DNA of 32,000 nt from Mycobacterium terramassiliense (lineage in GTDB: Bacteria > Actinomycetota > Actinomycetes > Mycobacteriales > Mycobacteriaceae), in assembly GCF_900157385.1 (NCBI RefSeq), contig NZ_LT717700.1, positions 673,818-705,817 on the forward strand. Direction: 5' to 3'. The notes under the pieces are model-generated. The model saw only the letters and a program-made list of their open reading frames with translations. It was not told the origin of the DNA and made no database searches. A program made the translations under genes and the position numbers. Positions within the stretch are counted from its first letter, which is position 1. Each line of letters starts with the position of its first letter. Shown here one piece after another: positions 25,833 through 26,743 of the stretch.

Positions 25833-26576
25833 TCACAGCGACCGCTCCAAAAGGACCTCGCCGTCATCGACGGAAATCACTTGGACAGAAGCGATTTGAT
25901 CTACACGTGTTGAAGTACTGCCGGCGGGCACCGCGGTGCGGCCCGGGTTCGCCACCCAGGTTGCCAACCGGGTGCGGCTGCCGTCGCGACCGACCACCAC
26001 CATCGCCAGCGTGTCGTGATGGGCGTTCAGCGGGGCCAGGCAAACGCAGTTCATCGAGATGGACGTTCCCCACCGCTGGCCGCTCAGGGATACCGTCGAG
26101 GCCAGCTTGTCCGTTCCGACCTGGGCCATCGGCTGAACCGACTCGTTCGCCCGCGGCGCCGGTCCGGTGGTCGAGGATTGGCCGGCAAGGCCGAGGAACA
26201 CGCCGATCGCCAGGACCGCGGCTGCGGCGGTCCCGGCCGCCCACGTCGCGATGCGCGACCGCCGCCGCCGCCATGCGACCTTGGCCAGCAACGACGCCAA
26301 CAACTCAGCGGTCGGCAGCGATGCCGCGTCGCCGCCGTCGTCCTCGTCGATCGCGGTCAACTCGCCGCGACGCAGCTGCGACAGGAGCGCCGGAATGCCG
26401 TTGAGCTCGCCAACGCCGCCGCGGCACAACGGGCAGTAGCCCAGGTGCGCTTCGAACTCGCGCCGTTCGGCCGACGACAGCGATCCCAGCACGTATGCGG
26501 CATCCCACATCGCGTATTCGTCATGCCCGGGCAGGTGACCGACTGGCGGCGCCCCGGGCCGCCAAAGCGGCATCAT
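25833..26576 (-). CDS. rslA: RslA-like zinc-binding (HxxxCxxC) anti-sigma factor
   Basis: YAMWDAAYVLGSLSSAERREFEAHLGYCPLCRGGVGELNGIPALLSQL, a single TM helix (IATWAAGTAAAAVLAIGVFLGL), and the C-terminal ...PMAQVGTDKLASTVSLSGQRWGTSISMNCVCLAPLNAHHDTLAMVVVGRDGSRTRLATWVANPG... closely resemble my recollection of M. tuberculosis RslA (Rv0736). The start is uncertain: ATG 26576 (GGGGAG SD 7 nt upstream) is preferred over 26591 and 26615. Confidence 0.8.
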   Translation of the reverse strand: MMPLWRPGAPPVGHLPGHDEYAMWDAAYVLGSLSSAERREFEAHLGYCPLCRGGVGELNGIPALLSQLRRGELTAIDEDDGGDAASLPTAELLASLLAKVAWRRRRSRIATWAAGTAAAAVLAIGVFLGLAGQSSTTGPAPRANESVQPMAQVGTDKLASTVSLSGQRWGTSISMNCVCLAPLNAHHDTLAMVVVGRDGSRTRLATWVANPGRTAVPAGSTSTRVDQIASVQVISVDDGEVLLERSL

Positions 26577-26695
26577 CCTATTACTCCCCATTTCCTGGGA
26601 TATCGTGGTATTCAAGCTATTTCAGGGATTTCAGATATTGGTCGGCCGCCGATAGGGGGCTCTGACCCTCTTTGCGGCCCTTAGCGCGCGTCCAT

Positions 26696-26734
26696 GCTGA
26701 TGAAACGAGCTAAGCGCCCGCAAGGTTCATCAGC
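26696..26734 (-). terminator. weak inverted repeat 3' of the FAD-oxidase gene
   Basis: gctgatgaa (26696-26704) and ttcatcagc (26726-26734) form a 9-bp perfect stem with a 21-nt loop. The structure lies 10 nt downstream of the stop at 26744 and has no U-tract. Confidence 0.3.
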
Positions 26735-26743
26735 GGGTCGTCG

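Follow-up and report, generated by a model that had tools for sequence, protein, structure and literature searches.

In Mycobacterium terramassiliense (RefSeq assembly GCF_900157385.1), a gene for an RslA-like anti-sigma factor, here named rslA2, lies among carbazole-type biosynthetic genes with no sigma gene at its side. The stretch of DNA analysed, hereafter the window, comprises 32,000 nt (contig NZ_LT717700.1, positions 673,818 to 705,817 of the forward strand), and coordinates are counted from its first letter unless another locus is named. The original prediction, made from the letters of the window, had described an RslA-like protein whose gene lacks an adjacent sigL, and had proposed as its partner a SigL encoded elsewhere in the genome or, less likely, an extracytoplasmic function (ECF) sigma factor 8.4 kb downstream. 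Comparison of this locus with the rest of the genome and with related genomes points to rslA2 as a remnant of a second sigL-rslA pair. The features discussed below are collected in Table 1.

The rslA2 gene and its product

A genuine open reading frame (ORF) occupies 25833-26615 on the minus strand. Translation probably begins with the ATG at 26576, which has GGGGAG 7 nt ahead of it and gives a protein of 247 aa. The product matches the Pfam family zf-HC2 (PF13490) with 27.2 bits against a cut-off of 22.2, and its sole sequence match in the PDB is M. tuberculosis RslA from the SigL/RslA complex (3HUG chain B; E = 2e-25 over residues 31-113). The segment RRRRSR, followed by a hydrophobic stretch, gives a predicted single-pass topology with the N-terminus inside. 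A Foldseek comparison of the AlphaFold2 (AF2) model of RslA2 with the PDB yielded no match at E <= 1e-3 and only generic beta-sandwiches. The description of an RslA-like protein with an HxxxCxxC motif, one transmembrane (TM) helix and a conserved outer domain is thus borne out by the agreement of zf-HC2, 3HUG_B, hydropathy and AF2.

Among the RslA2 proteins of related genomes, which form one clade (see below), the zinc motif is kept, with H44 found in 45 of 48 sequences and C48 and C51 in all 48. The fourth, distal zinc ligand of M. tuberculosis RslA is His25. In an HMMER alignment, the distal histidine of RslA2, H18, is offset by 1-2 residues from this position, and it occurs in 46 of 48 sequences. 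The dipeptide inside the CxxC of RslA2, PL, is specific to the clade; RslA1 of the source genome reads CPAC at this site. The sigma-binding core (WDAAYVLGSLS / FE / ALLSQL) is near-invariant over the 48 orphan copies, and no variation was seen in the AAAA stretch of the TM helix, A118 and A119 being the same in 40 of 40 sequences. In M. tuberculosis RslA, the AAA(A) stretch of the TM helix becomes a ClpX degron after Rip1 cleavage (bioRxiv 10.1101/491043); genes for M50 site-2 proteases are present in the genome studied here.

Upstream of rslA2, the region 26577-26743 is non-coding and comparatively AT-rich, as the original prediction had noted, with a GC content of 55.7% vs 69% for the gene and the window. 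The next gene in this direction does encode a FAD-linked oxidase, as judged by a match to Pfam FAD_binding_4.

Table 1. Features of the rslA2 locus in window coordinates
Feature	Position	Strand	Basis or remarks
rslA2, RslA paralogue, 247 aa	25833..26576	-	Stop codon 25833-25835; ORF, GGGGAG Shine-Dalgarno, zf-HC2, 3HUG_B
HxxxCxxC zinc motif: H44, C48, C51 (HLGYCPLC, residues 44-51)	26424..26447	-	Kept across RslA2 clade
Single TM helix, residues ~110-132	26181..26249	-	RRRRSR before, AAAA within; Kyte-Doolittle maximum 2.08
Extracytoplasmic C-terminal domain, residues 146-247, predicted beta-sandwich	25836..26141	-	AF2 predicted local distance difference test (pLDDT) 85-96
rslA2 5' leader, putative site of deleted sigL2	26577..26701	-	Relatives have intact sigma or frameshifted relics at same interval
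P_rslA2, predicted, TGAACC-N16-CGTTTC	26702..26729	-	11/12 positions of M. tuberculosis SigL consensus, spacer 16
P_ThDP2, predicted, TGAACT-N16-CGTGTT then AG	25789..25816	-	10/12 M. tuberculosis consensus positions; in 73-nt gap between rslA2 and gene for thiamine diphosphate (ThDP)-dependent enzyme
P_FMO, predicted, TGAACT-N16-CGTGTT then AG	29364..29391	-	10/12 M. tuberculosis consensus positions; 56 nt before FMO start
Segmental duplication, blastn-detected extent (5.2 kb)	21329..26517	.	Partner 34250-39342, outside window
Flavin monooxygenase-like (FMO) gene	28081..29307	-	Pfam Pyr_redox_3, FMO-like
FAD-linked (BBE-type) oxidase gene	26744..28084	-	Pfam FAD_binding_4; upstream neighbour of rslA2 in ~50 genomes
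ThDP-dependent enzyme (CqsB3/NzsH-like), copy 2	24011..25759	-	Pfam TPP_enzyme N, M, C; PDB BbmA/CsmA, E = 1e-50
CqsB2-like carbazole synthase, copy 2, 223 aa	23349..24020	-	PDB 6IPV (CqsB2), E = 1e-51
KASIII-like (CqsB1-like), copy 2	22333..23352	-	Pfam ACP_syn_III, ACP_syn_III_C; PDB FabH matches
Class I/II aminotransferase (CqsB7-like), copy 2	21290..22333	-	Pfam Aminotran_1_2
ECF sigma gene	16905..17441	Same as rslA2	Within window 16219-17441 pair

One sigL gene, two rslA genes and a duplicated biosynthetic block

No sigma gene adjoins rslA2, in line with the original prediction, which had proposed a search of the full genome for sigL and for a second rslA copy. This search yielded one sigL and two rslA genes. 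The single sigL of the assembly (self-match 99% over 181 aa; the next ECF sigmas are at most 32% identical) encodes SigL1, the orthologue of M. tuberculosis SigL (PDB 6DV9 chain F, E = 5e-96). It is located on the same strand as rslA2, 12.9 kb upstream and 7.5 kb beyond the window end. The product of the second rslA copy, rslA1, is 67-68% identical to RslA2 (67% over residues 17-247 in the whole-assembly search). This gene is found 12 kb from rslA2, again on the same strand and just past the window end. RslA1 aligns with M. tuberculosis RslA from the first residue (E = 5e-38), and the order at this canonical locus, namely mapA (methionine aminopeptidase), sigL and rslA1, is that of M. tuberculosis.

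The proposed phylogeny was obtained by a quick tree search on 84 RslA-like proteins. All RslA copies without a sigma gene form one 50-row clade with a Shimodaira-Hasegawa-like approximate likelihood ratio test (SH-aLRT) support of 99, and none of its members has an intact sigma gene upstream. Since RslA2 belongs to this separate clade, rslA2 is by its place in the tree a paralogue, outside the clade of sigL-adjacent copies; by the same tree, the second block with an orphan rslA2 is confined to one clade.

Self-comparison by blastn of the window and the next 18 kb demonstrated that 21329-26517 is repeated at window-equivalent positions 34250-39342 with 77.6% identity over 5211 columns. Each of the two blocks consists of an rslA gene followed by genes for a ThDP-dependent enzyme, a CqsB2-like protein, a KASIII-like protein and an aminotransferase. 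The proteins of copy 1 and copy 2 are 81.5% (ThDP enzyme), 83% (KASIII) and 66% (aminotransferase) identical. These four enzyme types constitute the core of bacterial carbazole biosynthesis (PMC7466098), and the operon behind rslA2 encodes all four, the synthase among them being of the CqsB2 type. A Pfam search of the CqsB2-like protein gave no match.

Several variants of this arrangement were observed elsewhere. In five of the sampled loci (L035, L054, L061, L070 and L072), mapA is followed by two tandem sigma/rslA-like pairs in addition to the orphan rslA2, so that three rslA-type genes are found in ~8 kb; one of the two sigmas is 67-69% and the other 80-84% identical to SigL1. In G007 and G008, the closest relatives reachable by whole-genome search, an insert of 5.7 kb lies between rslA1 and the block-1 ThDP gene (~7120-12810 and ~7310-13030 of the respective joined loci), and the latter gene has its own SigL-type box, TGAACC-N16-CGTGTC, directly ahead of it. 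Moreover, the block-1 ThDP, KASIII and aminotransferase genes of G008 (~13030-17470 of loci L016 and L017 joined) are split over frames and pseudogene-like, and block 2 behind rslA2 is intact.

Loss of the sigma gene across relatives

A one-genome-per-species scan with the RslA2 protein resulted in 65 loci, nearly all of them from Mycobacterium, including M. interjectum (87% identity), M. nebraskense, M. rhizamassiliense, M. asiaticum and many soil metagenome bins. Because the sampling was seeded with RslA2 peptides (some metagenome bins gave more than one locus), the locus counts are lower bounds and not frequencies. According to tblastn mapping of the neighbours, ~50 Mycobacterium genomes hold rslA2 in a shared context, in which the usual order is FMO, FAD oxidase, rslA2, ThDP, CqsB2-like, KASIII and aminotransferase genes, without a sigma gene.

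In five loci (L062, L063, L065, L066 and L073), an intact gene for a SigL-type sigma occupies precisely the interval from the oxidase gene to rslA. Their aminotransferases are of the copy-2 type (81-82% identity, vs 66% to copy 1), and these loci therefore represent the undamaged state of block 2. The respective genomes have no further close sigL and no mapA-linked pair. At least 11 further loci carry frame-split sigma fragments in the oxidase-rslA interval (blastx E down to 1e-30), and in most of them these fragments are closest to the L062-type intact sigma and not to any mapA-linked SigL. Colinear relics of sigL DNA were also found in G007 and G008, where local alignment reached 36 and 47 vs 21 +/- 2 for shuffled sequences. 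In the source genome, the interval between the oxidase gene and rslA2 is down to 167 nt, and its promoter is the sole recognisable element. A tblastn search with SigL1 revealed no relic at E < 1e-3 in the rslA2 leader of the source genome, G007 or G008, and local DNA alignment of the source-genome leader revealed no sigL relic above chance.

These comparisons make it highly probable that the present locus arose through duplication and the loss of sigL2, with the promoter and rslA2 being kept. The ancestral unit, duplicated within Mycobacterium, would have begun with a SigL-type promoter ahead of sigL and rslA, followed by another promoter and by the genes for the ThDP enzyme, the CqsB2-like protein, KASIII and the aminotransferase. 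Where the unit follows the FMO and FAD-oxidase genes, sigL2 would have been inactivated and then eroded in most lineages, and its autoregulatory promoter would have been retained under selection together with rslA2. The pattern looks like reciprocal loss, in which most lineages lost sigL2 and kept sigL1 and the L062-type genomes keep only the oxidase-linked sigma.

SigL-type promoter boxes

The SigL consensus of M. tuberculosis is composed of a -35 element TGAACC and a -10 element CGTGTC (PMC2703886), with a spacer of 16-17 nt between them. Later work added A at -8 and G at -7 and located the strongest specificity in G at -11 (Lin et al. 2019; PMC6372665). The original prediction had suggested a motif search of the two intergenic regions that flank rslA2, 25760-25832 and 26577-26743. 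Each of them contains a SigL-type box, and a third box precedes the FMO gene. When compared with the pattern of PMC6372665, positions -11/-8/-7 read T/A/T in P_rslA2 and G/A/G in P_ThDP2 and P_FMO. The source genome's own sigL promoter, TGAACT-N16-CGTTTC-AG, has the same T at -11.

A homologous box is kept in all 50 orthologous oxidase-rslA intergenic regions, which are indel-rich and vary from 200 to 770 nt, and its -35 element TGAACC is perfect in each. The box has at most one mismatch in total in 35 of these regions and at most two in 48, a fit almost never seen in shuffled versions. In three leaders P_rslA2 was placed by motif search, as plain MAFFT misaligned the promoter. A perfect -10 element CGTGTC is seen in the five loci whose sigma gene is intact; in the sigma-less loci, G has changed to T at -11, and the element reads CGTTT followed by C, A or T. 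The rslA2 leader of G008 can be aligned with the promoter, Shine-Dalgarno sequence and GTG start of sigL. As read from these alignments, P_rslA2 is a relic that descends from the autoregulatory promoter of the lost sigL2.

The other boxes recur as well. The counterpart of P_ThDP2 is a perfect TGAACC-N16-CGTGTC in L052, L059 and L074, the gap between rslA1 and the ThDP gene of block 1 also holds a SigL-type box, and a box homologous to P_FMO is present in G008 and many other loci. Genome-wide, the pattern TGAACY-N16-CGT[GT]T[CT] occurs 10 times, and five of these occurrences fall in this 14.3 kb, all of them intergenic and on the coding strand. An unfitted scan with the literature consensus (at most two mismatches, spacer 16) identified six sites vs 0.94 expected (Poisson p = 4e-4).

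Additional observations concern the sequences around these boxes and elsewhere in the genome. An 8-bp inverted repeat (CTGATGAA / TTCATCAG) brackets P_rslA2 (window 26697-26733, minus strand) but was absent from G007 and G008. Beyond the window, a tandem duplication of 16 nt ahead of sigL1 (GCTTAGCCGCCTGAAC twice; L003 ~8062-8096, minus strand) produces two -35-like TGAAC boxes. The RNA of the rslA2 leader does not fold better than shuffled versions (z = -1.8). The only perfect TGAACC-N16-CGTGTC of the genome (L085:536-563; contig C9 55536, plus strand) is located 22 nt before a gene for an ATP-binding cassette (ABC) transporter ATPase, which is a candidate for a further SigL target. It should be noted that this gene is not a known SigL target in M. 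tuberculosis, and the site is therefore of no help in validating the motif.

Selection on rslA2 and the partner of its product

The frame of rslA2 is intact in 48 of the ~50 genomes examined. Measured against eight orthologues, the ratio of nonsynonymous to synonymous substitution rates (dN/dS) of rslA2 is 0.25-0.41 overall, with 0.09-0.19 for the outer domain and 0.43-0.62 for the anti-sigma domain in the cytoplasm. The corresponding values for rslA1 are 0.17-0.30, 0.05-0.17 and 0.17-0.39. By these ratios, rslA2 is under purifying selection, and its anti-sigma domain is less constrained than that of rslA1. We considered whether rslA2 might be a functionless leftover of the duplication that is itself decaying, given that its former partner gene decayed at the same place. 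This pseudogene scenario is extremely improbable and was discarded in view of the intact frames, the purifying selection and the preservation of the start region, Shine-Dalgarno sequence and promoter while the adjoining sigma relics rot.

The only sigL of the genome lies 12.9 kb upstream and the SigL-type promoter has been kept, so RslA2 is most likely a second brake or sensor for SigL. Our preferred reading, to which we assign a probability of roughly 0.6, is that RslA2 represents the anti-sigma half left over from a second sigL-rslA pair, with SigL transcribing rslA2 and RslA2 serving as a second anti-SigL factor. Taken by itself, the proposal that RslA2 acts as an anti-SigL is rather likely. 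Mechanistically, the single SigL encoded beside rslA1 would transcribe rslA2 from P_rslA2 and would also drive the carbazole-type operons from their own SigL-type promoters, and membrane-anchored RslA2 would bind SigL via its N-terminal domain. An anti-sigma gene under a SigL promoter, with no sigma gene expressed alongside it, would provide pure negative feedback and a second sensory input, which may come from the CPLC zinc site or from the strongly conserved outer domain. The release of SigL could follow from oxidation of thiols with loss of zinc, from regulated intramembrane proteolysis or from both, as in M. tuberculosis RslA, where release involves zinc loss on oxidation and Rip1 cleavage (PMC2877774; PMC10449499).

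Several observations weigh against this reading. The sigma-binding domain of RslA2 has about twice the dN/dS of its RslA1 counterpart (0.43-0.62 vs 0.17-0.39), and its faster evolution could reflect a loosened or lost contact with sigma. The AF2 helices of this domain (residues 18-30, 35-46, 52-66 and 70-77) have a pLDDT of only 50-68. P_rslA2 carries T at -11, where M. tuberculosis SigL most strongly prefers G, and also lacks the G at -7, and it may therefore be weak. Between the oxidase gene and rslA2, neither a sigma-70-type promoter nor an intrinsic terminator was found; lacking such a terminator, read-through from P_FMO could feed rslA2. Finally, RslA sequences other than those of the RslA2 clade branch as a polytomy, and any order of the duplication and rearrangement events is tentative.

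One alternative is that, since the loss of sigL2, RslA2 holds no sigma and is kept for a sigma-independent role of its outer and membrane parts, for instance as a sensor or scaffold of the pathway or as a decoy substrate on which the site-1 and site-2 proteases would act in competition with RslA1. Such a role would be consistent with the tightest constraint falling on the outer domain, with the roughly twofold relaxation of the anti-sigma domain relative to RslA1 and with the invariable position of rslA2 inside the biosynthetic cluster. However, H18, H44, C48 and C51 and the sigma-binding core are near-invariant in the 48 orphan copies, which would be puzzling if the protein had lost all zinc-dependent binding, and the dN/dS of the anti-sigma domain is still well under 1. 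We therefore regard this alternative as unlikely.

The partner of RslA2 could also be another ECF sigma encoded elsewhere in the genome. As rslA2 is not linked to any sigma gene, its partner cannot be read from gene order, and cross-talk of ECF anti-sigma factors in mycobacteria is an open question (PMC6917791). On the other hand, SigL1 is the only SigL-close sigma in this genome, and both the ancestry of RslA2, from a SigL-type pair, and its promoter are of the SigL type, which renders this possibility very unlikely. The ECF sigma gene at 16905-17441 shares the strand and the long gene run of rslA2, but it overlaps by 4 nt its own likely anti-sigma gene, it does not encode a SigL-like protein, and the context of rslA2 is kept in ~50 genomes irrespective of that operon. 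The original prediction had placed this sigma second, and the presence of a translationally coupled Rieske-domain partner agrees with this ranking. Given this partner and the non-SigL-like sequence, we rejected it as the partner of RslA2, its chance of filling this role being minimal.

In the pair at 16219-17441, the gene overlapped by the sigma gene encodes a protein with a cytoplasmic N-terminal segment, a twin-arginine translocation (Tat)-like signal/TM stretch and a Rieske 2Fe-2S domain, and this Rieske-domain membrane protein is likely the cognate anti-sigma factor of the 16905-17441 sigma.

If RslA2 does control SigL, the signal that it perceives might be the product of the neighbouring pathway. 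A redox-active carbazole of the ortho-quinone type, or an intermediate, would oxidise the exposed CPLC zinc site or bind the conserved outer domain and thereby free SigL. We find this product-sensor proposal speculative and quite unlikely. Were it true, one SigL would integrate envelope or redox stress through RslA1 and the metabolite level through RslA2, and a duplicated anti-sigma factor could persist as an extra input channel with the redundant sigma discarded.

Comparison with known systems

The closest characterized system is the SigL-RslA pair of M. tuberculosis (Rv0735-Rv0736; 3HUG; Thakur et al. 2010, PMC2877774), which RslA2 resembles in its zinc site, single TM segment and outer domain, and to which sigL and rslA1 of the source genome are directly orthologous. 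In contrast, the rslA2 operon lacks a sigma gene and RslA2 falls in a paralogous clade of its own with CPLC in place of CPEC. Furthermore, rslA2 heads a carbazole-type operon, whereas M. tuberculosis has no such operon beside rslA. The predicted promoters share with those of the M. tuberculosis SigL regulon (P-sigL, P-pks10, P-mpt53 and P-Rv1139c; PMC2703886, PMC6372665) the -35 element TGAACC, the 16-nt spacer, a -10 element that begins with CGT and the A at -8, and their presumed targets likewise include secondary-metabolite genes, compare pks10-pks7. They differ in that P_rslA2 and the P_sigL of the source genome have T and not G at -11, and in that the targets here would be carbazole-type genes and a lone anti-sigma gene.

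The four enzyme types encoded behind rslA2 are those of the carquinostatin/neocarazostatin core of Streptomyces (CqsB7, B3, B1 and B2; PMC7466098). Unlike the Streptomyces core, the mycobacterial cluster occurs in two diverged copies and appears to be controlled by an ECF sigma/anti-sigma pair.

A literature search on orphan anti-sigma factors gave no match. Cluster-situated ECF regulators of antibiotic clusters include MibX/MibW in Microbispora and the orphan ECF sigma AntA of antimycin clusters. In these systems, as in the one described here, an ECF system is situated within a biosynthetic cluster or next to it and activates the promoters of that cluster. In our case, however, the orphan is the anti-sigma factor, and it would have arisen by loss of the partner gene after duplication.

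Linkage of sigL-rslA with carbazole-type genes in Mycobacterium

A CqsB2-like gene was found in 111 of the 151 Mycobacterium genomes sampled. Linkage was compared in the 14 genomes common to the CqsB2-like and RslA searches. An rslA-like gene lies at most 3 kb upstream of the CqsB2-like gene and on the same strand in 10 of the 14, at 5-10 kb in two, and is unlinked in the remaining two. These counts mark the link between sigL-rslA and the cassette as old and widespread.

M. tuberculosis requires SigL for its virulence. The sigL-rslA locus of non-tuberculous mycobacteria is in physical linkage with a carbazole-type biosynthetic cassette, and each cassette operon in this clade is preceded by a SigL-type box. 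The linkage and the boxes together lead to a concrete proposal, namely that the original role of SigL/RslA was to regulate a pathway of secondary metabolism. The orphan rslA2 may further be viewed as a natural experiment in circuit evolution, in which one or the other sigL was lost and both anti-sigma genes were mostly kept. The outcome would be a single sigma factor that answers to two sensors in the membrane, of which one is subject to pure negative feedback.

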